NCBI GenBank assembly: GCA_017510725.1
Contig: JAFWMD010000049.1
Location: 82,478 to 146,477, forward strand
DNA length: 64,000 bases
From: Mogibacterium sp.
GTDB taxonomy: Bacteria; Bacillota; Clostridia; Peptostreptococcales; Anaerovoracaceae
Reading direction: 5' to 3'
The first letter of the stretch is position 1. Every line of letters begins with the position of its first letter. The notes beneath the pieces are model-generated. The model had not been told where the DNA came from and ran no database searches. It saw only the letters and a program-made list of their open reading frames with translations. Position numbers and translations under genes: made by a program. Below, one piece after another: positions 33,074-57,594 of the stretch.

Positions 33074-35419
33074 TCATTCAATGTGTATGCTGTTCACGAT
33101 CTTCTCCTGCAGCAATTTATCCCGGTCTGTGTATATACCATTATCTTCATAATCTAATGTTACTCTGATCAGCGCCTTCTTTTTGTCAAGAGGGATATAT
33201 AGTGTATATATATGTCTGTCATTTTTGAGTACTCCTTTTCCAACAGTATCCAGCATGGTTCCTTCGCTGTACCAGCAATCTATACCATCGATTGTTATTT
33301 GTTCCTTGATTGCTCCTGTGTACCTGTCAGAATTATTCATTTTGAAAAGGTCGTAATCAGCTGATTTTTCCGCACCCTTTATATAGACATAGTCTTCATC
33401 TTTATACTCATCCACCACGATAGTCATGCTGCACCATTTACCGTAAGCCCATCTCTGAGAATCATATTCCTCATCCCAGCCTTTTGTCTCAAGGTCAGCC
33501 GGAAATGTGAGGCTGATTCCTGCTACATTCTCAGTAGTTTCCTTATACTCAGGCAATATGGCCTCCTTCCCGGGCTCAGCTGTTATCCTGATGCTTCTGA
33601 TCAACGCCTTGCAGACTTTTCTGTTCTCCTCATTGTCAGGGCCATAGAATGTGAACTCATCGATCCATTCTCCTCCGGCTACCGGGATCATAATGTGATA
33701 ATAGTAGGTATCAGAATCATAAATGAATTCCTGATAACAAGACTCCGTTCCGTCTATAACTATATTTCCCTGACTTAGAATATCATAACTTTTATTATCT
33801 TTATTAGGCGTATGGTATTCATTCACAAGTCCTTTAAGACCTTCTTTATAAAAAATCTCATAAGCAGATTCGTTCGAGTCCCGGTCCCAGCGGTATATAC
33901 AAAAAGTTGCTCCGTTTGTGGAATCATCCGAAGCCCAGTACCATCCCAGTGATTCATCTTCAGATTCGATATTACTTTCAGAGCTTTTCCATCCTGCAGG
34001 TAAATCAAAGCTAAGGCCGTGATCTCTTTGCGGCCACGTTGTCTCCCGCACCTCAGTCGTCTGTTCATCAGCAGTCTGTTCTTCTGCGGCCTTTTCTTCT
34101 GAGGACTGTTCTCCTGATACCATCTCTTCAGCCTTCTGCTGTCCGAGCATGTTGATCACGGATGCAATAAGAGTCAAGGCTACGGCTATAACTGCCAGAA
34201 CGACCCATTTAGGCTTTCTGTTATTCTTTTTCCGATCGCTGAATGCTTTGCTCCTGACTTTACCCCCTGAGCCATTACTGCCTGCATGCTCATCACCTGA
34301 TAAACCGGCTTCCGGCTCATCAGGACTACCTGCCAGCGTCTCGTCCATGACAGTAGGTTCCTGCTCCGTCGGGATATCAAACATACCTAGGGTTTCATCC
34401 AGACTGTCTTCTTTTACAAATACCCGGGATTCTTTTTCTTCAGCCGGTTTTGCAGTAGATACAGCCTGAGATGTTTCCTCAGCGCTTTTTACTTCTGCGG
34501 CTTTTGGCTTGCTGCTGTCTTTACAGCTATTCTCAAGAGCGTTGAGGTCATTGAGGAGTTCCCTCGCGGATTTATATCTGTCCTTTCTGTCATAGGCACA
34601 GGCTTTCAGTATGATGTCTTTCAGCCTGCGGCTTCCGTTGACAGGATCCGGAAGTGTTTCTCCTAAAAGCCTCCTGATATTTGCTGCCTGCACTTCTGAA
34701 GCCAGCGGCGTATCATCCGTTGGTACGAATGGATGCCTCCTTTTGTTGAGCAGCCAGTACATTACAAGCCCGAGCGAGTAAACATCTGCATCCATTCCGT
34801 ATTCTTTTCTGGCTTCTATTTCCGGAGCCATAAAAGTAGGCGTACCCTTGAGAGATGCCATTGTAGTATGGTCCATCTCCCTCGCTACGCCAAAATCTCC
34901 GAGCTTGTATACTCCTTCGTCTGAAACAAGGATGTTATCCGGTTTGATATCACGGTGAATTATGCCCTTTTCTTCACAGAAAACGAGCGCTGACGAAATA
35001 TCCTTTCCGAGCTTTATTACTTCTTCTTCCTTTAATTCCCTGCGCATCCTGTAGAGGGAGCTGAGCAGCTCCATCCTGATGCAGACATCCGAGCCCTCAT
35101 CATCTTCATGAGGCACTTCACGGCAGTCATCGCATCTCACTACGTTAGGGTTTTGCTTCAGCTGGGACATCAGCGCATATTCCCTGAAAATATCGCTGAT
35201 TATCGAACGGCACCATTTGCTGACATCATAATTTGAATTGCGCAGGGTCTCCAGCTCATCTTCACTGGATGGCACACTAATAATTTTGAGCGCAGCTTTC
35301 TCCGTAAACCCGTAAGCGTTGCGCTCAATCTCATATACGCTTCCGAACGATCCCTGTCCGATGCGCCTTATTATTTTCCAGTCTTTCCATGGATTGGTGA
35401 TATTGCTGAAATCTTTCAT
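33074..35419 (-). CDS. Hanks-type Ser/Thr protein kinase, single TM, large (~330 aa) unassigned ectodomain (K7)
   Basis: GQGSFGSVYE, ALKIISVPS, HRDIKPDNILV, DFGVAR, FMAPE. TM (WVVLAVIAVALTLIASVINML). Its start overlaps the PP2C stop by 4 nt. Confidence 0.9.
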   Translation of the reverse strand: MKDFSNITNPWKDWKIIRRIGQGSFGSVYEIERNAYGFTEKAALKIISVPSSEDELETLRNSNYDVSKWCRSIISDIFREYALMSQLKQNPNVVRCDDCREVPHEDDEGSDVCIRMELLSSLYRMRRELKEEEVIKLGKDISSALVFCEEKGIIHRDIKPDNILVSDEGVYKLGDFGVAREMDHTTMASLKGTPTFMAPEIEARKEYGMDADVYSLGLVMYWLLNKRRHPFVPTDDTPLASEVQAANIRRLLGETLPDPVNGSRRLKDIILKACAYDRKDRYKSARELLNDLNALENSCKDSSKPKAAEVKSAEETSQAVSTAKPAEEKESRVFVKEDSLDETLGMFDIPTEQEPTVMDETLAGSPDEPEAGLSGDEHAGSNGSGGKVRSKAFSDRKKNNRKPKWVVLAVIAVALTLIASVINMLGQQKAEEMVSGEQSSEEKAAEEQTADEQTTEVRETTWPQRDHGLSFDLPAGWKSSESNIESEDESLGWYWASDDSTNGATFCIYRWDRDSNESAYEIFYKEGLKGLVNEYHTPNKDNKSYDILSQGNIVIDGTESCYQEFIYDSDTYYYHIMIPVAGGEWIDEFTFYGPDNEENRKVCKALIRSIRITAEPGKEAILPEYKETTENVAGISLTFPADLETKGWDEEYDSQRWAYGKWCSMTIVVDEYKDEDYVYIKGAEKSADYDLFKMNNSDRYTGAIKEQITIDGIDCWYSEGTMLDTVGKGVLKNDRHIYTLYIPLDKKKALIRVTLDYEDNGIYTDRDKLLQEKIVNSIHIE

Positions 35420-36240
35420 TCTCCCTGATCAGCTGTAACTTTACAGATCAGTATCGTGACGTTGTCACGGCCGCCGTTCTTAAGAGCCTCGACCAGAAGC
35501 GCCTGTGCTTTTTCCTCTTCGTCCTCATCTCCCATGAGGATCTCAGTGATCTTCTCCGGTGTCACCATGTCCGTAAGTCCGTCGCTGCTAATGAGCAGTG
35601 TATCTCCGTCCTTCAAGCTGTCCCTGAATATTGCAGGGACGACTCTCATCTCTCTGCCGTCAATACCGAGGTAACGGGTCACATAAGGCTTTCTTCCCGT
35701 GATCCCATTGAGCTTCATGGTTTCTGCGTCAGTGTGGTCCACGGAGATCTGCTCGAGCTCTCCATCCCTGAGCCTGCTGCACTTGCTGTCTCCTGTATTG
35801 CAGCACCAGACATCTCCATCATAGAAGTAGCACCCCACCATCGTGGAGCCCATCTGATTTACAGCTCTCTCGCTGCTCTCGGCAAACACGGCATCATTGA
35901 GTATCAGAGTCATATCCGTGAGCATTTCCGCGACATCCGTATAGTCATCCGGAACATGCTCGTCGAGGAATTCATATGTCTTTATCGCTGCCGTATAAGA
36001 AGCTATTTCGCCATACTGACCCCCTCCCATGCCGTCAAAAACAGCAAAGAAACAACCGTCGTCTTCCCCGTGTCCCGAAACCCTGCGGGTACAGGTCAGC
36101 ACGTATTCAAGGCCGTTGTTATCAGAGTCCATGAGCTTGCCGTCAAAGTAGAAATTGTCTTCGTTGTTGGCACGGCGCAGGCCTCTGTTGCAGGCACATG
36201 CAGCTGAAATATTGTAATCACATGAGTTGAAAAGACTCAT
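35416..36240 (-). CDS. PP2C-family Ser/Thr phosphatase
   Basis: FAVFDGMGGGQYGEIAS, NTGDSKCSRL, LLISSDGLTDMV, GGRDNVTILICK. Confidence 0.9.
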   Translation of the reverse strand: MSLFNSCDYNISAACACNRGLRRANNEDNFYFDGKLMDSDNNGLEYVLTCTRRVSGHGEDDGCFFAVFDGMGGGQYGEIASYTAAIKTYEFLDEHVPDDYTDVAEMLTDMTLILNDAVFAESSERAVNQMGSTMVGCYFYDGDVWCCNTGDSKCSRLRDGELEQISVDHTDAETMKLNGITGRKPYVTRYLGIDGREMRVVPAIFRDSLKDGDTLLISSDGLTDMVTPEKITEILMGDEDEEEKAQALLVEALKNGGRDNVTILICKVTADQGE

Positions 36241-36265
36241 TTAATTAACTCTCCTTGTAAAAAAC

Positions 36266-38836
36266 TTATAATCTGACCGCTTCGAGAGCCTTACAGAGCT
36301 CTTCGATATCCTGATATCTTTCATCAGGGTCTATCCTCATACATTTCTCGATAACGGCCGCAAAATCAGATGATATATCATTATGATACTCGTGTGCAGG
36401 CTTTATGGCAAAGAAATTCAGACTCGGCCTTACCCCTGTCAGCAAATGATACAATGTTGCCCCTATCGCATATATGTCAGATCGAGGACCATACCCCTTT
36501 TGTATGCAGTCTATGAGGAATGACCTGTTATCAACAACCAGATCCAGCTGATCCTGTGGAAGTGTCTGTTCATCCGGAATCGCGGATGTTTCATCATCCC
36601 ACTCTGCCGCAACGGTTGCCTCATCCCAGTCTCCGGCTACTGTAGGTTCATCCCATTCCTCACTCCACATATCGCCGGATAAGGCCTTATCCAGATTGTT
36701 CTGTACCGGAGAAACAGCCGGCGGCGAAGTATTAGCGCTGTTGAGCAGACTTCGGCTGAGTTCGTCCGACAGTTTGCTGCTGAGATATCCTGATTCTACT
36801 TTGGCCTTGCTGAATGCCTCTACATCAACGCCTCGCTTCTGAAGCAGATTCAGGTAATTCTTTACAAATCCATACTGTTCGATTGGTGAGTAACCAGGGG
36901 TAGTACCTACCGACTTCACTGTCCCCTTGTCAATAATAGCCGAGATGTTGAAATCTATCAGGCATATATTCCCATCAGGTGTCAGCATTATGTTTCCGGG
37001 CTTGATATCGCTGTGTACGATAGCAGGCTGCATGTTGTGCAGGTATCTGACAGCGTCAGACAGCTGCTTTGCCCATATGAGGACGTATTTCTGTTCAAAC
37101 CTGCGCCCTTCCTTGAGATAGTCAGCAAAGCTCTTCCCAGGGACAAAGTCAGTAACAAGATACAGAGCCTGGTCGGCATCAAACACGTCATATATCTTAG
37201 GCAGATACATGTGCTTGACTCTCTTTAGCAATTCTACCTCGCGTTTGCCCGACACGGAGGTCTTCTGGTCGGCAGCTACCTTCTTCAGAACTACCTTTTC
37301 ATTCAGCCTTGTGTGCCATGCCGAGAACACCTCACCGAAGCCGCCCTTGCCTATCACATCAAGAACAGCATATGTATCATTGTAGATTATACTGTCCCCG
37401 ATACCTGCATGGATGACTCTGCTGATCCCGTTCTCACCAAAGCAGTCGTCAGGAACTTCAGAAGGATTGTCAGCTGCAAGAATAAACATTGCATTTCTGT
37501 CATCAGCTGTATTGCTGATAAAGTCCATCAGTTTCTGAGCTGTTTTTTTACCCGGATCACTTCCGAACAGCGAGTCAAAATGATTGATGAAGAAGCATGT
37601 CGGCTTATTGCTGTCGCATTTCAGTTCTATTTCACCACTGTCCGCCATCCGTCTCATGAGATCAGATGCATCCAGATACTCTATTTCCTGACTGAGCGAA
37701 GAGGAAAGATTCTCTACTACATACTGTTTATTCATTTCAGCATTGCCGTAGAGCAGTATCGTTTTTACCGGTTTTTTCCCCGTAAATATGACTTTGCTGT
37801 AGCTCTTTTCGCTGGAAAGTGTGCCGGCAATTGCTTCGATTTCTTCAGAGAAGTTCCTTTCTACATCTATCGCAGAAATGATCAGCTGGCCTGTGTTTGC
37901 TTCAAGATCCGCCTGTGACATTGCATTTGAGACCTTGAATGATGAGAACGGTCTTGTGATCACATATGCCAGGATGGTCTGTATCAGGACCTGAACGACT
38001 GAAATATTCACAGTAAGTCCGTCGACAAGGTTCAGCAGCGGTCCCGAGCCTGTCAGCAGCGCTGCCATAAGAGCAAATATCACTCCTTCACGAATATCAA
38101 GAGGGATCCTGGTGATCTTCACATTTTCGGATATCAGCAGTCTGCCGGCTATTATGGCAATGATCAGGTTAACTGCAATGACTACTATCAGCGGCAGCAG
38201 CATGCTTCCGGCCTGAGTGGCTCCGAACCCCAGATCAATACCTGCGATAACATTCTCCAGGTTTGATTTCATGCTCATGCCTTGCTGATTCCAAATGCTT
38301 AGCGGCTCCTCGTTAGCTATGTAGATGCCTGACACAAATCCCATAATTGAAAAAACTACCGCCGCTGTATATTTTGGGGAGCTGCTCATCTTATGTCCGC
38401 AAAAAACTATCAGGGTAAACAGCAGATATGCTGCTGCAGGTGAGCCTTCCTTCGAAGTCATCATACATAATGGGATCAGCATAAGTATCAGGCAGTGGAC
38501 CGACTTTGATATGACTCCTTCAAAAATCATAAGAACCGCAGCCACTGTAACAAGAATCGGAGCGGTCCCGCCTATCGTTATGAACAATGCGGCTCCCGAC
38601 AAGGCAACACCCAGTCCAGGGGATAACAGTGTCAGGGCAGCACATCCAAGCGATATAAGAATTACCAGCTGCCCCTCTACCAGGCCCGGCAGAGGTACTT
38701 CTCCAAGCTTGCTGTAAAAACTCAGCATCCTGAAAACGCCTGCACCGCATACTGCGGCGCAGACTATTTTCATGATGATCTCATATTTAACTTTTTTCAG
38801 GAAGAAATTATCCCATCTGAGTCTCAGATTATCCAT
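36266..38836 (-). CDS. Three-part fusion: polytopic membrane domain, degenerate AAA+ (SpoVK/CbxX/EccA-like) module, atypical Hanks kinase (K8)
   Basis: aa ~20-297 form multiple TM helices. aa ~345-465: VIFTGKKPVKTILLYGNAEMNKQYV ... CFFINHFDSLFG ... AQKLMDFISNTADDRNAMFILAADNP has the AAA+ layout with the Walker A/B residues lost. aa ~488-856: GKGGFGEVFS, VVLKKV, HSDIKPGNIML, IDFNIS, TPGYSPIE, SDIYAIGATLYHLLTG, with a WDE-repeat insert. Confidence 0.8.
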   Translation of the reverse strand: MDNLRLRWDNFFLKKVKYEIIMKIVCAAVCGAGVFRMLSFYSKLGEVPLPGLVEGQLVILISLGCAALTLLSPGLGVALSGAALFITIGGTAPILVTVAAVLMIFEGVISKSVHCLILMLIPLCMMTSKEGSPAAAYLLFTLIVFCGHKMSSSPKYTAAVVFSIMGFVSGIYIANEEPLSIWNQQGMSMKSNLENVIAGIDLGFGATQAGSMLLPLIVVIAVNLIIAIIAGRLLISENVKITRIPLDIREGVIFALMAALLTGSGPLLNLVDGLTVNISVVQVLIQTILAYVITRPFSSFKVSNAMSQADLEANTGQLIISAIDVERNFSEEIEAIAGTLSSEKSYSKVIFTGKKPVKTILLYGNAEMNKQYVVENLSSSLSQEIEYLDASDLMRRMADSGEIELKCDSNKPTCFFINHFDSLFGSDPGKKTAQKLMDFISNTADDRNAMFILAADNPSEVPDDCFGENGISRVIHAGIGDSIIYNDTYAVLDVIGKGGFGEVFSAWHTRLNEKVVLKKVAADQKTSVSGKREVELLKRVKHMYLPKIYDVFDADQALYLVTDFVPGKSFADYLKEGRRFEQKYVLIWAKQLSDAVRYLHNMQPAIVHSDIKPGNIMLTPDGNICLIDFNISAIIDKGTVKSVGTTPGYSPIEQYGFVKNYLNLLQKRGVDVEAFSKAKVESGYLSSKLSDELSRSLLNSANTSPPAVSPVQNNLDKALSGDMWSEEWDEPTVAGDWDEATVAAEWDDETSAIPDEQTLPQDQLDLVVDNRSFLIDCIQKGYGPRSDIYAIGATLYHLLTGVRPSLNFFAIKPAHEYHNDISSDFAAVIEKCMRIDPDERYQDIEELCKALEAVRL

Positions 38837-38854: not shown

Positions 38855-39355
38855 TTACTTCACCCTTATCTCGATACCCTCTTCTTCCATGCGGTTTACC
38901 CAGTTCATAATATTGCCGCTCATGCTGTCAATAACCATGCGTCTTTTACCTTTAACATAAATCTCATATCCGCCCCGGTCATCAACGCAGAAGTCGATAT
39001 CATGTATATCAATAGTTTTTCTGAATATCCAGAATCTGGAGGATGTCACCTTATCGCCATTAACTGTAACCTCCCAGAAGCCTTTAACCGGCAGGAGGAT
39101 AACGAAAATCCCAAGCAGGAACAGTCCTCCGAAGATAGCTATAAGATAGCCTTCCAAAGCACCGGCAATACTCGCCCCGATAATACAGAACAGGAAAAAT
39201 GCTGCTCCGATAATGCCTATTACCGAAATGGCTCTTCCGGGTCTCATATCAAATTGTTGGGTCGAATCGGTATTAATTGCATTTGATTTTCCGGACAACC
39301 AGCTCAATAATGCCGGAACAACAAGTGCAATTATAAGTATTGTTATTAAGCTCAT
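38855..39355 (-). CDS. Membrane protein, candidate immunity protein for the Rhs C-terminal toxin
   Basis: 166 aa with three hydrophobic helices (ITILIIALVVPALLSWL; VIGIIGAAFFLFCIIGASIAGAL; LIAIFGGLFLLGIFVILL) followed by a soluble tail. It starts 16 nt after the Rhs stop, on the same strand. Confidence 0.65.
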   Translation of the reverse strand: MSLITILIIALVVPALLSWLSGKSNAINTDSTQQFDMRPGRAISVIGIIGAAFFLFCIIGASIAGALEGYLIAIFGGLFLLGIFVILLPVKGFWEVTVNGDKVTSSRFWIFRKTIDIHDIDFCVDDRGGYEIYVKGKRRMVIDSMSGNIMNWVNRMEEEGIEIRVK

Positions 39356-39370: not shown

Positions 39371-42300
39371 TTATGCAATTCGAAGTAAGCATTTTGTAAA
39401 ACCACCGGCTAATTTTTTGATATATGCACTTGGTTGTATCTTTTTTATGAATTCTTTTACAACTGCACCTTTTATATGCTGCCCGAAAGTATGCAGTAAT
39501 TCAGGCCCCCATGTTTTCGGGCTGCACACTTTAATAACACCAGCCAAATTACTTAACTGTCCCTCATAGAAGTCCTTCGCAGGATTTGCTGTCAGATCCT
39601 GGTACCATTTAGGCATAAAGGTCTTAAGCTTTTTCCCGATGGCTCCAACCGCGGCTCCAATAGCTGCATCGACTGCACCGCAGGCGATGGACTCTCCCCA
39701 GCCTTTTTTATCTACGAACTTTGCTTCGGCAAATCCTCCGACAAATCCTCCGGCTGCTCCAGCTAAAACAGGATTTCCGGTTAAGCCCAAAACACCACCT
39801 TCAACAGCTCCGCCAAGTGCAGATGTTCCAACTTTACCCCAATTTACATTCTTCAGGTTTACATTGCTTAATCCGCCTTCCTTGATCTGTCCGATAAGCT
39901 GCTTGCCGAGCTCCATGCCTCCGCCAACAACTGCTCCTCCAATTGCGCCGATGGCTCCTGCAGCTAAATGTGCAAGGAATCTGCCCTCAGGGTCATAGTA
40001 TGTAAAAGGCATATTCGCGCAGTAAAGATACGGATTCAGAGTTATCGGCCTGACGATATCGCCCTTAACAGGGTCCTGTCCGGCAAAGCGTCCATGCTCA
40101 GGCATGTATTCTCTGGCCTGAGCAAAATACATGTCTGCTGTCGGATCATTCCTGTATCCTATGTATCTCAGTGGCTGGATGCTGTTCTCTGGTTCGTAAA
40201 GAGATGTACCGAATTCATCGTATCCGTAAGTCTCCGCATTGCTTCCATCCATGCCGAGAAGTCTTATCGGGCTGCCTTTATCATCATTTATAACATTGTA
40301 ATCGGTTTCACCTTTAAGTGTTATAAATGTGCCGTCAAAGATATATGCTTCCGACTTACCGTTAATGCTTCTCTCAAACAGGTTGTTGAAGTACTTAGTC
40401 ATGTCGACTGTGTACTTGATCTTCCTGTCTGAATCCGCGCCTCCCAGAATCGTTTCTTCGATACGGTGTCCTAATCCGTTATATGTATAGGATGCTTTGT
40501 TTAAGCCGTTAGCTGCCTCTGCCAGTTTTCCTGCAGGATCATAAACATAGGAGTTGCAGGTCTTGCCATCAATGGCTCTCTCGATGACATTACCTCTCTT
40601 ATCATATCTGAAAGTTTCTTTTACCGGGCCGGCTGCTTCCAGCAGGCGGTCCATAGCATCATATGTATAACTGGTGCTGACACCACCGGATACCAACGAT
40701 TTTCTGTTTCCAAACGCATCATACTCATATGAGCGAAGCGCTGCCCCATTTTTCTTTACAGAAGCAAGTCTTCCGGTCGGATCGTAGCCAAACTCGAACA
40801 GTCCGCTTTCTTCAGGCAGTCCTTCTCTGAAGCGCTCAATCGATGTTCTCTCTCCGTTTGAATCGTAAGTGATACGGGAAGAATCCAGCAATTTTCCGTT
40901 CTGCATGCTTTTGATCTCAGTAAGAAGGCCTCTGTTATCATATGCATACGATGTTGCCAGCCCTGTTCCGACAGTCTTGCTTATAAGATAACCGTAATCG
41001 TCATATCCATAGCGTACATCTGTATCTCCCTCTTTCAGAGATGTCAGTCTCATTGCTTTATCATAACCATATGATACGACTCTGCCGTCAGGATGTTTTA
41101 CGCTGAGCCTCTCACCGGCCTTGCCATATGTATACTCTGCGGATCTGTTATCCGGATATATAACTTTAGTTATTCTGCCGAGGATGTCACTTTCAACTTT
41201 GGTTATTCCAGTCCAGTCACTGACCTCTGAAAGCTTGCCAAGAGCATCATGCTGCATCATGATCTCTCTGCCGTCATCATACTTTACAGAATTGAGTTCT
41301 CCGTTACGGTCATATCCATATTGTGTAAGGTAGCCGTCTTTATCTATTGCCTGAGTAAGCTCTCCTCTGCCATTGTACACAAACTTTTCTGTATACCCGA
41401 GAGGATCCGTAACAGATACGATGTTTCCGCAGAGGTCTCTGACACACTCTGTCTTGTGGATCTCGCCTTCTCCAATCTTTTTGATTTCGACAAGCATGTC
41501 GAGTGCATCATAAACGTATTCAGTTCTGCATCCGAGTTCATCGGTAACGCTGCTCAGTTTACCTGTCAGTGTGTATTCATATACATTCTTATTGCCATTG
41601 CAGTCGCAGGATGATGTCATATTGCCTACTGCATCGTATGTATATGTATTATTTGCACCATTATTGTCTCTGATTGCAATTACGTTGCCTACCGCGTCGT
41701 ATTCATATCTGACAGTATAGCCTCTGTTTGTGCCCTGAGATTCGAGTCTTCCGTTTATATCATAGGTAAAATACTGTTCCCTGCCATCCGGATATGCGAT
41801 TTTTGATGGCTTTCTGATCGAATCATATTCGATTGTAGTTACTCTGCCTGCCTCATCGATAACTTTTGAAACATCACCGTCAGGGGTATATGCATATTTC
41901 CTTGTTTCTCCAAGTGCATTCTTTTCGCAGATGAGCTGATCGGCGTCATCATATTCCAGATGCACTTCTCCGCCGTTTGCATCTTTGATATGTACAAGGT
42001 TGTTATTTGCATCATACTCATATTCAGTTTCATTACCTTCAGGATCCTTGACATAAATCAGATTGTCAAGATTATCGTACCTGAATTCTGCCACAGCTCC
42101 TTCAGGATCAATGCTGAATTTCAGATTGTTGTTACCGTCGTACTCAAAAGTGCTCTCATTACCCATAGGATCGATTTCCTTGGTAACATTGCCGTTTTCA
42201 TCATACTCGAAGTGAACGGTTGCACCATTTGGAAGCTTATGGGATGAGACATTCCACATGTCGTCATACTCTTCTTCCGTTATTCGGCCCAACGGATCCG

Positions 42301-47565: not shown

Positions 47566-47574
47566 ATCTGCCTC

Positions 47575-47937: not shown

Positions 47938-47963
47938 TTGTCTGTCTCATCCTTTCTGTCTGT

Positions 47964-48036: not shown

Positions 48037-48285
48037 CTATACCAGGATGAGTCTGTCGGCATCTCTCACGCCGCTTTCGTACAGTGTTCGGTCAGCTGAG
48101 AGTGGCATTCTTTTGTCTGTGTAGTACAGAACAAATCCGTCATCGCCCGGTTTGAGCTCGCTCTTGGTCCTCCTCGCGATCATCTCCGTCACCTCAAGTA
48201 TGACGACTTCAAGGTCCGCATTCTCATCGAGCATAAAGTCGAAACTCTCGTCCAACGCAGGCATATATATGTCTACCATTATCAT
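48037..48285 (-). CDS. esaB: YukD/EsaB-like ubiquitin-fold T7SS protein
   Basis: 82 aa; MIMVDIYMPALDESFDFMLDENADLEVVI...YYTDKRMPLSADRTLYESGVRDADRLILV fits the YukD beta-grasp pattern. It has a 4-nt overlap with the upstream gene and lies in the essC/WXG100 context. Confidence 0.8.
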   Translation of the reverse strand: MIMVDIYMPALDESFDFMLDENADLEVVILEVTEMIARRTKSELKPGDDGFVLYYTDKRMPLSADRTLYESGVRDADRLILV

Positions 48286-49662: not shown

Positions 49663-52600
49663 TTGCTCTTGTCTTCCTGCTCAATCTTCTTAACAAGCGG
49701 AACTACTACCTTACGCGTAGCGTTCTCATCATATACATCAGGCAGCTGGCCCACGCCGACCTTGGCGTTTTTGTTCTGTTCGGAATAAGGCATATACTCA
49801 AAATTGAGCAATGTGTTGGCTGCGACATTGCCGCCCATGTGGATACCCTTCTTGTAACCCGTGAAGCTGTCGAATGCAGCATATCCGCTCGCATTTGCCT
49901 TATTCTTGATCGAAAGATCTCCAATAAAGTATATATTGTTTCCACTGCCCTTGGCGATTATGTTTTCAAACAGTGGTGCAAGATTGATAGTCGACTTGTA
50001 AATCAGATTGATGAACTGGTCGATCTGCGGCAGGAAGAAGAATACCGGCTTGAATTCGCTGCTCATCACCTCGAATATCTCGTCAGCCTCCTTGCCCTCG
50101 CTAATGAGTACATCCTTGCGTTTTCTGCGCTCAATAAAGTCAGGAATAAGCTTTCCAAGGTAGCTTTCGAGTTCCTTCTCTGTCACTACATACGTGACTC
50201 CCGGAGACTCCTTGAACATGCTGAGATCGTTCTCACCATTGTCCACTATGCAGATCTCAGCACCCTTCTTAAGTGCACCAAGCACGCATATCTTGAGCAG
50301 GTTTGTCTTGCCGGTCTGCATCGCGCCGTAGATACCATAACAGAATGTCTCGTTCAGAGGTATTCCGTATACCGCAGCGCTTGCGGCATCGTATCCGATT
50401 GGCAGCAGATCCTTGCGTGCAATCATGTTCTCGTATTCTTCCAGTCTTGAGAACGACTGCCATACCGGCTTCTCAGGTATCTCAGGTACCGGTCTAGCAA
50501 GTCTTCCCGTCCACGTCTCTGCCATTTTGTCGCAAATGGCTCTGATACCTTCCATACGCTCATAGTCGTTGTCTGCTCTGACCGCAAGTGCAGTCTGATA
50601 CTCAAGGATCCTGGTGCCATAGTAAGCAAGGCCTCTTCCCTTGACTCCACTCTCAGGCAGAACGCTTATCTGTGTTGTATGCAGCAGGTCGCCGTACTCG
50701 AACTTATCCTTAAGCGACAGAGTAAGCACTGTGCTCATGTTCTCTCCTACGCGGGAGGTGATCTCTGCGGCGCTGTATCCTCCTCCGGATACGAGCAGGA
50801 AGATACCATTGCTGATGCCTTCCTTTGACAGCCTGATCATATCTTCTTCATAAGCTTCATTGGTCTTCTGCTTGAATGCACCGTAGTTGTCTATCATGAT
50901 GAAGATGGCAGGCATTGTTACTCCGTTTACACGGACGTACTGCTTATAGCTTCCGCCGCGGAAGATCTTCTTTCTCTCTTCAAGTATGCCGTTGATCATG
51001 TTGAAGAATTTGCCGATCTTCTCCTTGTCATTTTCATACATGACTCCGCCGAACTGAGGAGCGTTCTCAAACGCAGACATCATCTTGCTGCTGAAGTCCA
51101 GTGCGTAGATATTCACCACCTCAGGCGAGTATCTCTGTATCAGCGAGAATGCGATCGTCTGCATCGTGGTACTCTTACCGCTGACGATGGATCCGCAGAT
51201 CGCCATGTTGCCATCTTCAGCAAAGTCGATGTCGAATGGCATCTGTGCCTGATTCTCAGGGTCATCCATCTGTCCGATGGTGACAGCCAGATTCCAGTTG
51301 CTGTCAGCCGGTTTCCACGACCCGTTTGTAGTAAAAGCATTGTCTCTGTATGCCGGGAATTCCTCCAGGAATATCCTCTCTCTGAGGACAGGCAGCCACA
51401 GCTGGTGCTTGGCTGTATATCCATTCTCTTTTGCAACTACAGCCAGGTATTCCTTGATGGCATCGAGCTCTGTGTGCTCCTTCTGCTGCGGCAGCTTTCT
51501 TCCGGTCTCGGCAGAATATGCTACAAGGCCCTCTGCATCAGGAATGTCTCCCTCTGCGCTGAGCTCTGCGTACATGCGTACAAGGTCCTGAAGTCTTGCA
51601 GTATTGAACTTGCTCTCCTGATAGTCAATGTTGCTCCTGGCCATGATGTCGTACATGCCAGTGATAATTGCCTGTACGTTATCCGGATCACCGAGGCTTC
51701 CGTCAGATTCCGCGAGTACTGCTGCTGCAGTCTGTTCCAGCATGTCTATGAGCTTCTCCGCCCATCTGATTTCCGCTGTCTTCTTGCGGGCCTGCTTGAT
51801 CGAGTTACCGGTCATGTCGACCTTTCCTGTAAGGCTGATCAGCTTGGCGACGTCAGCATTGCCCTCGTATGAGCTTTCATCATATGCAGCTCCGCTGTAT
51901 CCTGACTGGAACAGCTCGTACAGCTCGTCATTACCTACCTGCAGGTAACATCTTCCGGCCTGTGTGATGTAAGCAGCATCAGGCTTGTGCAGCATGTCGT
52001 TACTGTCCTGCTTATCCTGTACTCTTAAGCACAGTCTGAATTTGGAGTTACTCCAGATGTTATCGTCTACTGTACCGCTAGGCTTCTGTGTGGCGAGTAT
52101 CAGGTGTACTCCGAGGCTTCGTCCTACCTGGGCTACGCTGATGAGCTCGCGCATGAACTCAGGCTCTTCGCGCTTCAGTTCGGCGAACTCGTCTATTATG
52201 ATGAAGAGGTGCGGAACCGGAGTCGTGACCTCTCCGTTTTTGTACAGTTTTGTGTATGCGTTTATGTTGTTGACGCCGTTCTCCGTAAAGATCCTCTGTC
52301 TGCGCCTGTTCTCACTCTTGATGGAGATCATCGCACGCTTGACTTGGTTGCCCGACAGGTTTGAAATGGATCCTGCCATCTGAGGCATTCCGTCGAAGAG
52401 GTTGGCCATTCCACCGCCCTTATAGTCTATGATGAAGAACGCTACATCATCCGGGCTGTAGTTGATAGCAAGTGAGAGGATGTATGTCTGAAGCGTCTCA
52501 CTCTTTCCGGATCCGGTAGTACCCGCAACCAGGCCGTGAGGTCCGTGGTATTTTTCGTGTACGTCCAGATAGCAAGGCACGCCGCCGGCTTTCTGTCCGA

Positions 52601-54698
52601 CAAGGCCTTTAATGTTCTCATATACCCTGCTCTTTGCCCAGAGTTCTTCAACCGGCAGGTCTTCAGGCTTCTTGATACCCATCATGTCGAAGAACGTGAG
52701 TGAGTTAGGGATCTCGCCTCCGGATTCGATCTCAAGAACCTTAAGTTTGGATACGCGTCTTGCAAACTGTTCGAGATCGTCCTTGTTTACCTGGTCGAAT
52801 ACTATGGATGCATCCTGATCCGACTCAGCTGTCGTCTCATAGTAACCTCTGAAATTATTAGTATTTTCTATGATGAACTCACAGCTGTTTGGAAGTTCTT
52901 CATATCTTTCTGCCAGCATGATTGTTGTCAGGCCGTACAGTGCGTTATCTTCGAATATGTATTTTGAGAACATCTCGCCTTCAATCAGAGACTGATCTGA
53001 TATGAAGAGCACGAAGTATGGTTTAGGGAATGCCGCTTTTGGAGAGGAATTGTTGCTGGTGGCTTCCTCAGCCCTTGCACGCATGACATTACCCATTTCA
53101 TACAGGATGTCTCCTACTTCATCACGGTTGGATGCTACATACCTGGTTTTTCTGTCCTCTGACCAGACATGAGGCAGCCATTTTGCAAAGCCCCACTCAT
53201 CATGGTCGGCAGATTTGCTTCCGTCATAAATGTATGCCAGCTTGACATCCGTATAGCAATTGTTGGTTGCGATCTGGGCACTGAGTACTCTTGCTATGTC
53301 GATAGCGCCCTTCTTCATTTCACCTCCAACGATACCTATAATATGATGTTCGCTGAGGTCTACTGTTATAGGAACATTGCTGAGCGTCCTGTATGATGAT
53401 TTGATCATCTCAGGTCTCTCTGCAAGGTCATCTTCATACAACGAGAACCGGCTGGAAGGTATTCCGATCTCCATGTTGAACGGTGCATTACCCATTCCAA
53501 GCCTGTGAACAAGGAAGTCTCTGTGTGATACGTTTCTGCTCCACAGAGAACCCGACGTTTCATCGTACTGCAGGCACTTGTTTACTTCCGGATAGTTCTC
53601 ATGCAGGCTCTGAGTCGTTTCTTCATATACTTTCTTGATTTCTTCACTCTTTTTGATCAGATAATCGCCGTATTTATTGAGTCGGAGTTCCTTAAGCGCC
53701 GCAAGCTCTTTCTTTGATTGCTTGCGGTTGATAAGAGTCCACATGACTCCGATGAAGGCAGACGAAACAGCCATTACAAGGCCGGAGAACATGAAGAGGT
53801 TTCCTCCGCCACCCATCGTTCCCTGAGATCTGTACGACATGATCATGAGCGAGCATCCCAGCAGCATAGGCAGTGACATTGTCAGGGCCGGGCCGACAGA
53901 CATGAACAGGGACTGGTTCCTCTCCTGAGGGAGCGGCGGTGGTCCTTCGATCTCGATTTTCTCATGACGGATACTCTCTACATAACGAGGCGCTCTTCTG
54001 TAGGTCGTTTTACCCTGAGACAACGTTTTATTGGTTCTGGTCGGTCTCTTTGCATTTGCGGAAGGTGTTATCAGTCTCTTCAGCTTGGCCTCATTGATCG
54101 TTACTTTGTAATTCTTGGTATCGATTGCCAGGAGTGATCCGAGGTACACCATGTGAAGGCCGATGATGTTGATGTAGTCTCCAAATTCGAGCCTGATGCG
54201 ATCCTGGATCTTGACTGAGTTGACATAAATACCGTTGTCACTCATGTTCCTTATGTATGTTTCGCCTCCGCTTGACGTGATTTCGGCATGATGTCGCGAT
54301 ACCATTCCTCCGAAGTTGTATGCGATATCGTTCGAAGGGTCCTTTCCGATGGTGATACTATCTACATTACTGATTCTGTACTTGGACATCGAATGGAACG
54401 GACTGTCTGAATCCGACACGATGAGTGACAGGAGGTCTCCCTTGATCGTGGAAATTCCCACCATAAGTCTGTCAGACAGCTCGACCTCGCTGTAGCGGTC
54501 TTTGAGTACCGTCAGGCTGTATTCCGGACGCTCCTTGATTTTCCATACGTTGTTCATGACCTCAAGTGAAAGTTCGAGGTCGTCAGAAAGCTTGAACTGA
54601 TCCTTGAGGATGGTTATCTCGCAGTCTGAGTTGTTGATTGAAGGAAGAATGAATTCTTTGAAAGCTTCCTTTGAATAGATCGACAGAATAAGGCTCAT
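49659..54698 (-). CDS. essC: EssC/YukB-type FtsK-SpoIIIE T7SS ATPase (two N-terminal FHA-like domains, two TM, three P-loop domains)
   Basis: FHA-like ITIGKDPSNDIAYNFGGMVSRHHAEI...MSDNGIYVNS. TMs LFMSVGPALTMSLPMLLGCSLMIM and LFMFSGLVMAVSSAFIGVMWTLI. Walker A boxes GTTGSGKSE, GSIVSGKST, GAMQTGKTN. Walker B LFIIIDEFAEL. Confidence 0.93.
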   Translation of the reverse strand: MSLILSIYSKEAFKEFILPSINNSDCEITILKDQFKLSDDLELSLEVMNNVWKIKERPEYSLTVLKDRYSEVELSDRLMVGISTIKGDLLSLIVSDSDSPFHSMSKYRISNVDSITIGKDPSNDIAYNFGGMVSRHHAEITSSGGETYIRNMSDNGIYVNSVKIQDRIRLEFGDYINIIGLHMVYLGSLLAIDTKNYKVTINEAKLKRLITPSANAKRPTRTNKTLSQGKTTYRRAPRYVESIRHEKIEIEGPPPLPQERNQSLFMSVGPALTMSLPMLLGCSLMIMSYRSQGTMGGGGNLFMFSGLVMAVSSAFIGVMWTLINRKQSKKELAALKELRLNKYGDYLIKKSEEIKKVYEETTQSLHENYPEVNKCLQYDETSGSLWSRNVSHRDFLVHRLGMGNAPFNMEIGIPSSRFSLYEDDLAERPEMIKSSYRTLSNVPITVDLSEHHIIGIVGGEMKKGAIDIARVLSAQIATNNCYTDVKLAYIYDGSKSADHDEWGFAKWLPHVWSEDRKTRYVASNRDEVGDILYEMGNVMRARAEEATSNNSSPKAAFPKPYFVLFISDQSLIEGEMFSKYIFEDNALYGLTTIMLAERYEELPNSCEFIIENTNNFRGYYETTAESDQDASIVFDQVNKDDLEQFARRVSKLKVLEIESGGEIPNSLTFFDMMGIKKPEDLPVEELWAKSRVYENIKGLVGQKAGGVPCYLDVHEKYHGPHGLVAGTTGSGKSETLQTYILSLAINYSPDDVAFFIIDYKGGGMANLFDGMPQMAGSISNLSGNQVKRAMISIKSENRRRQRIFTENGVNNINAYTKLYKNGEVTTPVPHLFIIIDEFAELKREEPEFMRELISVAQVGRSLGVHLILATQKPSGTVDDNIWSNSKFRLCLRVQDKQDSNDMLHKPDAAYITQAGRCYLQVGNDELYELFQSGYSGAAYDESSYEGNADVAKLISLTGKVDMTGNSIKQARKKTAEIRWAEKLIDMLEQTAAAVLAESDGSLGDPDNVQAIITGMYDIMARSNIDYQESKFNTARLQDLVRMYAELSAEGDIPDAEGLVAYSAETGRKLPQQKEHTELDAIKEYLAVVAKENGYTAKHQLWLPVLRERIFLEEFPAYRDNAFTTNGSWKPADSNWNLAVTIGQMDDPENQAQMPFDIDFAEDGNMAICGSIVSGKSTTMQTIAFSLIQRYSPEVVNIYALDFSSKMMSAFENAPQFGGVMYENDKEKIGKFFNMINGILEERKKIFRGGSYKQYVRVNGVTMPAIFIMIDNYGAFKQKTNEAYEEDMIRLSKEGISNGIFLLVSGGGYSAAEITSRVGENMSTVLTLSLKDKFEYGDLLHTTQISVLPESGVKGRGLAYYGTRILEYQTALAVRADNDYERMEGIRAICDKMAETWTGRLARPVPEIPEKPVWQSFSRLEEYENMIARKDLLPIGYDAASAAVYGIPLNETFCYGIYGAMQTGKTNLLKICVLGALKKGAEICIVDNGENDLSMFKESPGVTYVVTEKELESYLGKLIPDFIERRKRKDVLISEGKEADEIFEVMSSEFKPVFFFLPQIDQFINLIYKSTINLAPLFENIIAKGSGNNIYFIGDLSIKNKANASGYAAFDSFTGYKKGIHMGGNVAANTLLNFEYMPYSEQNKNAKVGVGQLPDVYDENATRKVVVPLVKKIEQEDKSK

Positions 54699-54901
54699 CT
54701 GTTATTTCCTCTCTTATTTGTTATCTGTTCATCAAGCATATTGAATTTGCTTAATTCCTGCTTGCTGTTGATTTCAGCTACCCTGGCTTTTTTCAGACGT
54801 GAGAATTTTACGGTAAAAAATATGAGAACTGCTGCGACAACGACCTCAACCGCAAGCCAGAAATAATATGATGTGAATATTTCCTTGAGTTGTTCTTCCA
54901 T
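54695..54901 (-). CDS. 68-aa single-TM protein translationally coupled to essC
   Basis: TM YYFWLAVEVVVAAVLIFFTV followed by a basic segment. It has a 4-nt overlap with the essC start. Confidence 0.6.
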   Translation of the reverse strand: MEEQLKEIFTSYYFWLAVEVVVAAVLIFFTVKFSRLKKARVAEINSKQELSKFNMLDEQITNKRGNNR

Positions 54902-54949
54902 GAGGTGATCCTGTTTCTCCTTTATAACAGAAATATCTTCTTTTTTAAG

Positions 54950-55837
54950 TCAGATCCTGACTATTCTTAACCTTATATTGCAGGCAGAGCCTGTTGCATG
55001 ATCCCTGAGGCCGGTATCCGTGATGAGCAGGCAATCGCCCTCTCTCACTCCTGCAGGAATGGTGATTTCAAACCTCTCACCTGTACCGAAATCAACTATC
55101 CTGACAACCCCTTTCTGCATTTCAGAATCACTGAGGTAAAATATACCGTTTTTCTCTTTTACAGTTCCGGGATGGGCACTATGTTGTCCGACCAGGAAGA
55201 CGGTTCCTTCGTTCAGGCCATTATACATGTCGAACATATTGTCATTTATGTCGACTTTTTTATCTATATTATTATCGAAATGGACCTCTCCCTCCGGAGC
55301 AGCCTCCGCCGGCTCATGTGCAGGTTCTGCTGCCGGCTCTGCGATCACCGGTACCGCTTCTGGTATTGGTTCCGGTTCTGGCACATATACTGGCTCTTCG
55401 ATCACTGGTTCCGGTTCTGGCACATATACCGGTTCCTCGATAACTGGTTCTGGTTCCGGTATCGGTTCTGGTTCTGCCATATATACCGGTTCCTCGATCA
55501 CTGGTTCCGGTTCTGGTTCTGGCACATATACCGGCTCCTCGATCACCGGTTCTGGTTCTGGTTCCGGCTCCGGTATCGGTTCAGGTTCTGCCATATATAC
55601 CGGCTCTTCGATCACCGGTTCTGGTTCTGGTTCCGGCTCCGGTATAGGTTCAGGTTCTGCCATATATACCGGCTCTTCGATCACCGGTTCAGGTTCAGGA
55701 ATAGGTTCCGGCTCCGGCTTTGCAGTCACCACCGGTTCCTCTACTTCCGGAACGAGCAGTTTAGCTCCGCAATATGCACAGAACAGTGCGCCTTCTATTA
55801 TTTTTTCTCCGCATTTAATACAAAATCTCTGCCGCAT
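54950..55837 (-). CDS. Zinc-ribbon protein with PEPEP-type tandem repeats and conserved C-terminal beta-rich domain
   Basis: FCIKCG...FCAYCG zinc ribbon. About 150 aa of ([23 protein letters not shown])n. The C-terminal [32 protein letters not shown]...CNIRLRI is paralogous to 1243..1746. Confidence 0.8.
55300..55750. repeat. Coding tandem repeat (69-bp unit and shorter derivatives)
   Basis: Units 55548-55616 and 55617-55685 differ at one base (ggtatcggt vs ggtataggt). More diverged copies flank them. Confidence 0.9.
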
Positions 55838-55867
55838 CTCTTAACCTCCTGGTGCTCCGTATGCAGC

Positions 55868-56953
55868 TTAGCGCTTTTCCGGAAACCCTATTCTGTAAAC
55901 ATTATCAGATAATTTAATGGTATCACCCTCTGATATGCGGTACTCAACCGACTTATCTATCCTGATGCCGTTCACCCTGACGCCGTTTGTTGAATTGGCA
56001 TCGGTTACATAATACATGCCTCCCTTTTCTGTAAAGATGGCATGCTCGCGGCTTATCTTGTCGATTTTCAGTATGTAATCATTAGCCTTGCTGCGGCCGA
56101 TTTTGAACGGGAAGTGATCTATAAGGATCTCTTCTCCTACTCCGACACCCCTTATGCAGGTAAGACTCATAGGTTTCTCTGCTAAGCGCTTTACTTCTTC
56201 TATCGGCATTGCTACCGTTTTTTCCAATTCGGCTGGTCCGTCATCAGGCTCAGGTATAAAAACAGGAATCGAATTCTGCAGGGAAGGACGTTCCTGTGCA
56301 GGAGCCGGTACGTCGTACACCGGGCCTGCGGCAGGCATTTCTTCCACCTTTCTCTCTTCTGCTGCTTTCAGAGCCTCGCGAATCTGTTCGGTTTTTATTT
56401 CCTGTGTATATGCAGCTTTTTTCTTCTCAGGCTCAAGGCCGCACGAAACATAAACAACCTCCGGCTCATCATACTCCATAGGCAGGACAGGTCTTGCCTT
56501 TATGGTGTAAGTCTTCGGCTCAGGTTTTTCTGCTTCCTGCACCTGCAGAGCTTCCCGGCTTCTCTTTTCAAGCACCGGATAGTTTATAACAAACTCAAAT
56601 TCAACTTTGCCGAGTATTATGCTGTCCCCGTTATTCACACTATAAGGAACTCCGGACTGGATCTTCTGCCTGTTGATCTTTGTTCCTTCTCTTGATCCAT
56701 TGTCCATGATGGTGAACTGTCCGTTATGGCAGTCTATGGTGCAGTGGACATTATCAACACTGTTGTGAAAAAAAGAAACATCTGCCGCATTAGGGTTTTT
56801 CCCTATAGTTGCAGGTACTTTGCTGATACCCCTTTTGATCTTCTTGTTGAAAAGGACTGCCAGCATTTCTTCTTCCTGAGTGTCGGACATATTGCTGGTC
56901 TTTTCAGCTTCTGGTTCCGCTACGCTGTCTTCTTTTTTGAACCATTCAAGCAT
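55868..56953 (-). CDS. Tandem FHA-domain protein (paralogue of 1768..2844)
   Basis: N-terminal FHA-like ATIGKNPN...VDNVHCTI...GSREGTKINR. C-terminal canonical FHA FKIGRSKAND...ISREHAIF...NSTNGVRVNG. Inter-domain motif EYDEPEVVYVSCGLEPEKKK. Confidence 0.9.
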   Translation of the reverse strand: MLEWFKKEDSVAEPEAEKTSNMSDTQEEEMLAVLFNKKIKRGISKVPATIGKNPNAADVSFFHNSVDNVHCTIDCHNGQFTIMDNGSREGTKINRQKIQSGVPYSVNNGDSIILGKVEFEFVINYPVLEKRSREALQVQEAEKPEPKTYTIKARPVLPMEYDEPEVVYVSCGLEPEKKKAAYTQEIKTEQIREALKAAEERKVEEMPAAGPVYDVPAPAQERPSLQNSIPVFIPEPDDGPAELEKTVAMPIEEVKRLAEKPMSLTCIRGVGVGEEILIDHFPFKIGRSKANDYILKIDKISREHAIFTEKGGMYYVTDANSTNGVRVNGIRIDKSVEYRISEGDTIKLSDNVYRIGFPEKR

Positions 56954-56991
56954 ATGTACAACTCCTTTTATCGCTTAATGACGATGCATGC

Positions 56992-57594
56992 CTACTTTTC
57001 AATATTGAAAGTAAACTCTACATCGGCAAATTTTATCCTGTCTCCGTCATTGACAGGCATCTGCTGAGTCTTAGGTACTGGTACTCCGTTCACGGTGGTT
57101 CCGTTTTTGGAGTTATCTACTATAAAATAATTGCCGTCTCTTTCATAGAAAGTCGCATGCAGCCTGCTGATCTTCTGACTACCCGGAATCATGTAATTAG
57201 AGCTGTTAAGGCTTTTGCCTACAGAGAACAGATCTCCTGTGCACTCTATCCTGTATCCATCAGAACATCTTGTCAGTACTACTTTGCATTGCGGCTTTTC
57301 TTCCATGAAGAACGGCAGCGTTTTATCATCATCATCGTCATCAACCGGTACAGTTGCATCATCATACGAAGCAATGGTTTTCTCATCGTAAAAATCATCA
57401 TCTACTTCAGGGACCAGAACCATGTTCTGAGGTGTCACTGCAGGTCCCTGGTTGTATGCTTCAGCGCGGACGTCGGACGGGCTGCTGCCGGCACTGTCAG
57501 TTTTACTTTTCTTTTTATTTCCGCTAATCACCGCAAAAATAATACCACCGACTATAACCACGGTAGCTAAAACTGCAATCCATACTTCTGCCAT
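56992..57594 (-). CDS. N-terminally membrane-anchored FHA-domain protein
   Basis: TM VWIAVLATVVIVGGIIFAVI followed by KKKSK. C-terminal FHA: FSVGKSLNSSNYMI...ISRLHATF...NSKNGTTVNG. Confidence 0.88.
   Translation of the reverse strand: MAEVWIAVLATVVIVGGIIFAVISGNKKKSKTDSAGSSPSDVRAEAYNQGPAVTPQNMVLVPEVDDDFYDEKTIASYDDATVPVDDDDDDKTLPFFMEEKPQCKVVLTRCSDGYRIECTGDLFSVGKSLNSSNYMIPGSQKISRLHATFYERDGNYFIVDNSKNGTTVNGVPVPKTQQMPVNDGDRIKFADVEFTFNIEK

Follow-up and report, generated by a model that had tools for sequence, protein, structure and literature searches.

Beyond the mycobacterial ESX systems (T7SSa) and the Ess and Yuk machines of Staphylococcus aureus and Bacillus subtilis (T7SSb), a search of RefSeq genomes has extended the known diversity of type VII secretion systems (T7SS) with eight further subtypes, T7SSc to T7SSj (Garrett, Higginson and Palmer, microLife 2024; PMC11217815). 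These subtypes are devoid of EssA, EssB and EsaA and combine, in varying sets, membrane Ser/Thr kinases, PPM phosphatases, separate FHA proteins and small single-transmembrane (TM) or Zn-ribbon proteins, together with EspG-like proteins and Rhs or LXG cargo, a LytR-like regulator being found in T7SSi only (PMC11217815). The same survey noted that the kinase-TM protein shares the topology of EssB and, for T7SSc, e, f and j, proposed a logic of regulation by phosphorylation (PMC11217815). Here, we analysed a 64-kb stretch of DNA (hereafter, the window) from a Mogibacterium sp. genome (assembly GCA_017510725.1, contig JAFWMD010000049.1), in which a minus-strand gene string running from 57594 to 33074 encodes a complete type VII system whose architecture matches no published subtype, within a general class already published in 2024. 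We consider it probable (about 0.75) that this complete locus represents a lineage, neither T7SSa nor T7SSb, that is widespread in uncultured Clostridia of the gut and rumen.

Gene content and conserved order of the locus

Twenty minus-strand open reading frames (ORFs) follow one another between 57594 and 33074, with 4-nt overlaps at TM68/EssC, EssC/LytTR, P222/YukD and PP2C/kinase, an overlap of 38 nt at LytTR/P222, and gaps of 9-99 nt between the remaining genes. They were labelled by profile searches against Pfam (E<=0.01) and NCBIfam (E<=0.1), and the hallmarks of type VII secretion were all recovered, i.e. an EssC-type ATPase, WXG100 genes and YukD, each above curated cut-offs. A preliminary description, made from the DNA letters alone, had already listed these 20 ORFs; their coordinates, order and labels were all borne out by Pfam and NCBIfam, and its 222-aa and 120-aa proteins exist as listed, their EspG-like fold and WXG100-like kinship having been missed. 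The conserved machine genes comprise an FHA-bearing EssC, YukD, an EspG-fold chaperone with a LytTR pseudo-response-regulator, six ordered genes of the WXG100 superfamily, and single-pass membrane proteins, several of them with a cytoplasmic FHA domain. The upstream and central parts of the string read as follows:

56992..57594, minus strand: TM-FHA protein, 200 aa, with an N-terminal anchor (TM 6-24), an acidic linker and a cytoplasmic FHA domain (Pfam FHA, E=6e-16)
55868..56953, minus strand: cytoplasmic double-FHA protein, 361 aa (Pfam FHA over two stretches, E=3e-33)
54950..55837, minus strand: Zn-ribbon protein, 295 aa (Pfam Zn_Ribbon_1), with a linker of Pro/Glu-rich tandem repeats and, at the C-terminus, a small domain
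54695..54901, minus strand: TM68, a 68-aa single-pass membrane protein (TM 13-31), its stop overlapping the EssC start
49659..54698, minus strand: EssC-type ATPase (TsxC), 1679 aa, with tandem N-terminal FHA domains, two TM helices and three P-loop domains
48913..49662, minus strand: LytTR protein (TsxN-like), 249 aa (Pfam LytTR PF04397, E=6e-17), with an N-terminal pseudo-receiver domain
48282..48950, minus strand: P222, predicted EspG-like chaperone (TsxG-like), 222 aa (AlphaFold2 and Foldseek)
48037..48285, minus strand: YukD/EsaB ubiquitin-fold protein (TsxB; Pfam YukD PF08817, 34.4 bits against a cut-off of 27)
47575..47937, minus strand: P120, divergent WXG100-like helical protein, 120 aa, devoid of a WXG motif
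47260-47565, minus strand: WXGa (Pfam WXG100 above cut-off)
46938-47249, minus strand: WXGb (Pfam WXG100 above cut-off)
46569-46925, minus strand: WXGc (Pfam WXG100 above cut-off)
46201-46500, minus strand: WXGd (Pfam WXG100 above cut-off)
45792-46109, minus strand: WXGe (Pfam WXG100 above cut-off)
44135..45733, minus strand: trypsin-fold/FHA protein, 532 aa, with a signal/TM segment, an extracellular trypsin-fold pseudoprotease, a second TM and a cytoplasmic FHA domain (Pfam Trypsin_2 and FHA)

A scan of species-representative genomes returned 442 stretches with EssC relatives, and locus comparisons were conducted on the best 80 of these 442, whose EssC proteins display 47-92% identity over their full length. 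Nearly all carriers among these 80 are metagenome-assembled genomes (MAGs), labelled as Lachnospiraceae, Eubacterium, Clostridiales, Anaerovoracaceae or Acutalibacteraceae; the carriers that appear to be cultured isolates are MGBC000124 and MGBC000269, from mouse gut. In total, 87 related loci were compared, including a full-flank set of 38 with complete 10-kb flanks around EssC. The conserved order is (anchored small protein or TM-FHA), EssC, LytTR, EspG-like, YukD, P120, WXGa-e, (FHA protein). A comparison of gene order among relatives had been proposed at the outset, and this core order is kept across 80 species-level genomes, so that the arrangement is not due to chance. Within the full-flank set, YukD is present in all 38 loci (and in 82/87 overall), WXG100 genes in 37, and LytTR, EspG-like and extra FHA proteins in 34 each.

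The gene directly upstream of EssC encodes an N-terminally anchored single-pass protein in 59/74 loci and carries a Pfam FHA domain in 33/68; the TM-FHA type occupies this place in many related loci, and an N-terminally anchored protein of ~65 aa stands in the position of TM68, itself without family match in Pfam or NCBIfam, in about 20. On the other side of the core, the position of the trypsin-fold/FHA protein after WXGe is likewise conserved, the FHA protein found there often bearing a trypsin-fold ectodomain. The initial proposal that FHA/TM proteins belong to the apparatus holds to this extent, membrane-anchored FHA proteins occupying conserved positions beside EssC in most related loci. 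The cytoplasmic double-FHA protein has homologues upstream of EssC in four of them (L001, L009, L010 and L054), and the C-terminal domain of the Zn-ribbon protein was found in only 7.

EssC, identical in sequence to GenBank MBR3200979.1 from a 'Mogibacterium sp.' MAG (Anaerovoracaceae), reached 1081 bits against the Firmicutes EssC equivalog TIGR03928 (cut-off 778) and matched PF01580 twice, with Walker A motifs at residues 726, 1169 and 1458 and a Pfam FHA domain at residues 115-178. Its nearest PDB entry by sequence is YukB (9qks), and an AlphaFold2 model of residues 1-260 (predicted local distance difference test, pLDDT, of 85) retrieved 9qks_H (B. subtilis YukB), 5fwh and 1wv3 as top Foldseek matches, i.e. 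YukB and the FHA structures of Geobacillus and S. aureus EssC, so that residues 1-192 are predicted to form two FHA domains. Members of this EssC family exceed the published representatives (1479-1572 aa) by ~100-200 residues, and a poorly conserved stretch lies between P-loop domains one and two (residues ~940-1090). The identification of this FtsK-like ATPase as a conjugative or DNA translocase was rejected in view of the equivalog score, YukD and the WXG100 genes.

P222 has no sequence-family match in Pfam or NCBIfam, and structure prediction assigns it the fold of EspG chaperones. Its AlphaFold2 model (pLDDT 86, predicted template-modelling score 0.83), built from a shallow alignment (11 proteins from a word-indexed homologue search, 15 with a profile query) and confident nonetheless, was compared with the PDB through Foldseek, and the top 13 matches were all mycobacterial EspG1, EspG3 or EspG5 (best E=2.5e-6 with a template-modelling score of about 0.55; top 12 at E<=1.4e-4). 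The neighbouring LytTR protein aligned in part with BtsR, AgrA and LytR, the alignments reaching into its N-terminal domain, and the acidic phospho-acceptor pocket of this receiver-like domain is not conserved among 68 homologues. LytTR is present in 70/87 loci, each time together with P222, and in 14 loci YukD directly follows EssC with both genes gone (L013, L015-L017, L020, L022, L026-L028, L038, L042, L069, L077 and L079); present or absent together, the two genes therefore behave as one removable module.

The five WXG100 ORFs (45792-47565) all exceed the PF06013 cut-off and all carry a W-x-G motif, and each position of the array is held by the same paralogue from one locus to another (a-d in 38-39/40 loci, e in 29/40). 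P120, whose position between YukD and WXGa is conserved in related loci, aligned with the five WXG families in hhalign profile comparisons (probability 89-97%, E from 1e-11 to 2e-6), which identifies it, at the level of sequence profiles, as a sixth, divergent WXG100-like protein. WXGc ends in eleven glycines followed by RRG, the corresponding DNA being a 9-nt repeat at 46581-46613. A promoter and terminator scan of 44000-58000 yielded a number of sites not above that of shuffled sequence and is therefore uninformative on operon structure.

Relation to T7SSa, T7SSb and the subtypes c to j

Like the T7SSb of S. aureus (Ess) and B. subtilis (Yuk), the locus encodes an EssC in which tandem FHA domains are combined with two TM helices and with P-loop domains, as well as YukD/EsaB, WXG100 proteins, and antibacterial cargo of the Rhs or LXG type whose immunity genes lie next to it. 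Unlike them, it is without detected EssB/YukC pseudokinase, EssA or EsaA: models of these three proteins had no match in the 20 locus ORFs nor in 38 other scanned ORFs of the window (37 of them taken from the listed ORFs of at least 150 aa), in agreement with the preliminary description, which had recognised none of them. Among relatives, the YukC, EssA and EsaA families were never matched by the gene directly upstream of EssC (68 loci), and precomputed Pfam annotations of 5 related loci place none of them within 10 kb on either side of EssC. The sole polytopic protein of the string (36266-38836) is without homologue in related loci. An ordinary T7SSb, with EssA, EssB and EsaA encoded elsewhere or too diverged for detection by sequence, would agree with an EssC scoring above the TIGR03928 cut-off and with tandem FHA domains whose fold matches YukB and EssC, and the search of the source genome covered 64 kb. 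We nevertheless regard this explanation as highly improbable: besides the negative results above, the EspG-like chaperone, the LytTR partner and the six-gene WXG array are foreign to T7SSb, which has one EsxA, and, among the six representatives compared, it is to S. aureus EssC that the N-terminal region of this EssC is least similar (92 bits). The FHA domains of the locus also keep most of their phosphothreonine-binding residues, unlike those of T7SSb EssC (PMC11217815).

With the T7SSa, i.e. mycobacterial ESX systems, the locus has in common a predicted EspG-fold chaperone, tandem WXG100 paralogues, one of which (WXGe) also exceeds the PPE and EspC Pfam cut-offs, and an FtsK/SpoIIIE ATPase. 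It departs from them by its EssC, a single chain with FHA domains, and by its monoderm clostridial hosts; EccB, EccD, EccE and mycosin (MycP) had no match above noise in the locus, the sole EccD match being the YukD-like fold (E=0.055).

Among the subtypes described in 2024, the comparison was based on the N-terminal 680 residues of EssC and on the representatives of Figure S2 (text recovered by optical character recognition, one sequence per subtype, no tree). The best match among the six representatives so recovered was TsiC (179-205 bits, 25-26% identity over 668 residues), followed by TseC (160 bits), TsfC (155), TsjC (131) and TsdC (121). The published subtypes score similarly against each other (TsiC-TseC 207-226, TseC-TsdC 219-227 and TsfC-TsjC 159-164 bits), which places this region approximately as far from TsiC as these subtypes appear from one another. 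A broader query with EssC residues 1-1000 retrieved a continuum of metagenomic EssCs down to 32% identity and was of no help for classification. Among the cluster members of ten close EssC relatives and ten distant representatives, which bear GenBank MAG accessions or no name, none could be matched to the WP_ accessions listed for the published subtypes.

The closest of these systems, T7SSi of Vallitalea (TsiB, TsiC, TsiG, TsiM and TsiN), has in common with the locus four of its five defining parts, namely the YukD-like TsxB, an EssC with N-terminal FHA, the EspG-fold TsxG and the LytTR/receiver-like TsxN; both are devoid of EssA, EssB and EsaA, and Vallitalea is a member of Lachnospirales, in which most carriers are also found. 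The locus could consequently be viewed as the already described T7SSi with a wider host range, and TsiC as best EssC match argues in this direction. The fifth part is what is missing, however: the ParA-like TsiM (P-loop, C-terminal TM) was found neither in the 87 loci, where 11,549 ORFs gave no phmmer match to a MinD seed and no deviant Walker A, nor in the window, where no ParA/MinD family was matched by Pfam. The AAA-like middle region of the 856-aa kinase fusion K856 was tried as a TsiM equivalent and rejected, its Walker A being degenerate, the region not ParA-like and not conserved. Moreover, the identity to TsiC is that found between separate published subtypes, as far as N-terminal regions of one representative each, read from recovered text, can tell; the fixed order of P120 and five WXG100 genes contrasts with T7SSi, for which no core WXG100 gene is assignable (PMC11217815); and the anchored TM-FHA and trypsin-fold/FHA proteins, as well as the kinases and PP2C, are additional to the parts listed for T7SSi. 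We therefore judge the equation with T7SSi rather improbable.

Other parts recall T7SSe and T7SSj of Bacillota (PMC11217815): membrane kinases of the Hanks type (TsxD), PPM phosphatases (TsxF), separate FHA proteins (TsxJ) and small proteins with a Zn ribbon or a single TM (TsxK/TsxH) are common to these subtypes and the locus, as is an EssC whose FHA retains conserved phosphothreonine residues. The two subtypes differ by having no LytTR or EspG-like part, and one or two WXG100 genes against five or six here. The DUF6382 domain had no match in the window, which encodes the double-FHA protein instead of a DUF6382-FHA TsxJ; among relatives, L005 does carry such a TsxJ, and L001 a TPR kinase like TsjD. 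Likewise, the window contains no TsxI-like protein, and in nine related loci (L023, L034, L036, L037, L040, L041, L052, L070 and L080) a protein of 1050-2720 aa, with an N-terminal signal/TM segment and a C-terminal TM, lies upstream of EssC and resembles TsxI of T7SSd/e/j; a Pfam scan of four of them detected bacterial Ig-like domains in L023, L034 and L036 and none in L070.

On present evidence, this family appears to form its own lineage, equal in rank to a subtype and with i, e and f as its nearest neighbours, and it mixes parts of different published subtypes. No description of this exact architecture was found in the literature searched, and comparison with the described subtypes, which the preliminary description had left to be made, assigned it to none of them. 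The variant as a concept is not new, since T7SSc-j with such parts, including the remark on kinase-TM and EssB topology, were already described (PMC11217815); what is new here is the predicted EspG fold of P222, the WXG100-like nature of P120, the P120-like N-terminus of the Rhs protein detailed below, the core order conserved in 80 genomes, and the variability of Rhs, its immunity gene and the kinase fusion.

Phospho-signalling genes, variable cargo and genomic surroundings

Downstream of the trypsin-fold/FHA gene, the string continues with five genes:

39371..44107, minus strand: Rhs effector, 1578 aa (Pfam RHS_repeat, E=4e-110; DUF6531; Rhs core)
38855..39355, minus strand: putative immunity protein, 166 aa, three TM (Pfam DUF6560), directly downstream of Rhs
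36266..38836, minus strand: K856, 856 aa, with a polytopic membrane domain, a degenerate AAA-like domain and a non-RD kinase (Pfam Pkinase, weak AAA)
35416..36240, minus strand: PP2C/PPM Ser/Thr phosphatase (TsxF-like; Pfam PP2C; NF033484 Stp1-type, E=3e-41, below the model cut-off)
33074..35419, minus strand: K781, a bitopic Hanks-type Ser/Thr kinase (TsxD-like), 781 aa, with a kinase domain, a TM at residue 406 and an extracellular domain (Pfam Pkinase, E=2e-42)

The Rhs protein combines a P120/WXG-like helical N-terminal domain, DUF6531, a YD shell and, beyond a DPEGRF motif, a hydrophobic, glycine-zipper-rich C-terminal domain. Profile comparison aligned its residues 1-110 with the P120 family (hhalign probability 92.5%), to which this N-terminus belongs; such a match is compatible with a helical domain for targeting to type VII secretion. 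The C-terminus and the 3-TM DUF6560 protein probably constitute a membrane-acting toxin and its immunity protein. The N-terminal and C-terminal toxin regions of Rhs and the immunity protein had no homologue in the 87 related loci, and they therefore represent variable cargo rather than apparatus. This locus-specific toxin and immunity pair is what is expected of polymorphic cargo, and in this respect supports the view of the string as a secretion locus. Downstream of WXGe, other loci display DUF4176 genes beside proteins of 355-430 aa whose family was not recognised (L001, L003, L006 and L007), or proteins of 340-395 aa with an N-terminal WXG-like domain (L015, L022, L023 and L082), both of which are probably alternative LXG-type cargo replacing Rhs.

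The trypsin-fold/FHA protein, with TMs at residues 15 and 339, has Asp in place of the catalytic Ser. Among 41 members of its family, the triad residue is kept in 16 for His, 28 for Asp and 12 for Ser; the catalytic triad being lost in most members, a role in sensing or binding is likelier for the ectodomain than proteolysis.

Most FHA domains of the locus retain most phosphothreonine-pocket residues, which supports a phospho-dependent machine: the pocket reads GK/SRxH/NG in EssC and TM-FHA, GR/AKxH/NG in the trypsin-fold protein, and has the canonical GR/SRxH/NG form in the C-terminal FHA of the double-FHA protein, whose N-terminal FHA is degenerate. These FHA proteins gave sub-threshold matches to the TagH model TIGR03354. 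The kinase K781 is canonical in its motifs (Gly-loop, AALK, HRD, DFG and APE), and its extracellular C-terminal domain has no homologue in the 87 loci. The kinase domain of K856 bears HSD and DFN motifs; since its membrane and AAA-like regions have no homologue in the same loci, this protein is probably an accessory or a neighbour, and not part of the apparatus. The preliminary description had listed Rhs, its immunity gene and this fusion in the same operon; a place for them in the apparatus is not supported by the 87 relatives, in which these genes have no counterpart, and the kinases that it had also included are frequent (25/38 full-flank loci) without being universal, PP2C occurring in 15/38.

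Kinases, PP2C and some of the FHA/Zn-ribbon genes could alternatively be unrelated neighbours belonging to general cell-envelope Ser/Thr signalling, the true unit being then restricted to the TM protein, EssC, (LytTR, EspG-like), YukD, P120 and WXGa-e. Indeed, eight bitopic Hanks-type Ser/Thr kinases, two with PASTA repeats and one with a C-type lectin ectodomain, lie in a row between 18504 and 38836, an unusually dense array beside a secretion locus, with two PP2C among them (26083-26856 and 35416-36240), so that some of these kinases may be unrelated neighbours. A second pair of double-FHA (1768-2844) and Zn-ribbon/DnaJ_C-like (1243-1746) genes, on the same strand and 50 kb away, shares 32-35% identity with the pair at 54950-56953 and adjoins teichoic-acid-type genes; the incomplete distribution of kinase and PP2C among relatives and the lack of homologues for the membrane and middle regions of K856 and for the C-terminal domain of K781 point in the same direction. 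Against this explanation, FHA proteins besides EssC occur in 34/38 full-flank loci, where their positions to either side of the core are constant, EssC itself has FHA domains with a largely intact pocket, the 4-nt overlap of PP2C and K781 continues the same co-directional gene string, and kinases are likewise tied to the published subtypes c, d, e and j, and PPM phosphatases to c, e, f and j (PMC11217815). On balance, we find a purely neighbouring origin of the phospho-signalling genes unlikely, though deserving consideration.

Teichoic-acid-type genes flank the secretion locus and the kinase array on both sides (2863-3816, 11419-13781 and 57748-62760), and include three CDP-glycerol glycerophosphotransferase (TagF-like) genes, LicD, a GDPD gene and an ABC exporter pair. 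The DNA of the Zn-ribbon gene contains tandem repeats (55360-55696, periods of 39-69 nt), and the Pro/Glu-rich PEPEP...VIEEPVY repeats that these encode probably form a linker whose length varies.

Several points weigh against the interpretation of the string as a complete, phospho-regulated type VII machine of its own lineage. Gene content is what the analysis establishes, the functional steps being all inferred from it. In the FHA pocket of EssC and TM-FHA, Lys takes the place of the conserved Arg, kinase and PP2C are lacking in 13/38 and 23/38 full-flank loci respectively, and the trypsin-fold protein is found in 18/38 only. The eight-kinase array and the second FHA-FHA/Zn-ribbon pair suggest that part of the phospho-signalling set may serve general envelope signalling. 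Finally, EssA, EssB and EsaA could lie elsewhere in the genome, the search having covered the 64-kb window and the 10-kb flanks of relatives.

Proposed functioning and implications

In the model that we propose, hexamers of EssC would form a membrane complex with TM68, TM-FHA and the trypsin-fold/FHA protein, small bitopic proteins that may stand in for EssA, EssB and EsaA. Threonine phosphorylation would govern the assembly or gating of this complex, by the logic already proposed for some of the published subtypes (PMC11217815), membrane Hanks-type kinases writing the mark, FHA domains reading it and PP2C erasing it. Such a switch would parallel the PpkA/PppA/Fha1-TagH switch of type VI secretion, where a membrane Hanks-type kinase, a PP2C and FHA proteins are also encoded within the secretion locus; the two machines are unrelated and the likeness is a functional analogy only. 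The WXG100 paralogues and the EspG-like chaperone would escort cargo with a P120-like N-terminal domain, here the Rhs toxin, whose glycine-zipper C-terminus probably attacks target membranes, the 3-TM protein encoded downstream giving immunity to the producer. As for the LytTR protein, it is probably the transcriptional regulator of the locus.

More tentatively, and with slightly less than even confidence, we propose that this family is to be counted as an eleventh type VII subtype, distinct from the others, and that it provides the uncultured Lachnospiraceae and Anaerovoracaceae of gut and rumen with their main type VII system. In such a system, the EspG-fold chaperone and the six WXG100-like proteins would bring ESX-like substrate handling into a Firmicute machine, and a membrane-anchored, phosphothreonine-reading FHA network would replace the EssB pseudokinase/EssA/EsaA scaffold. 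The 2024 subtype scheme missed this lineage because it was built from RefSeq genomes and the carriers are almost only MAGs. Some carriers are apparently cultured (MGBC000124 and MGBC000269), and experiments are therefore feasible. The fixed six-gene WXG100 array and its EspG-like chaperone offer a route to studying the selection of cargo by WXG100 partners and chaperones outside mycobacteria, and from the anchored FHA proteins a model can be drawn, and tested, of the way in which a type VII system may be built and switched without EssB, EssA and EsaA. If confirmed, this lineage would be the prevalent means of contact-dependent toxin delivery among major commensals of the gut and rumen, with a bearing on strain competition in these microbiomes.

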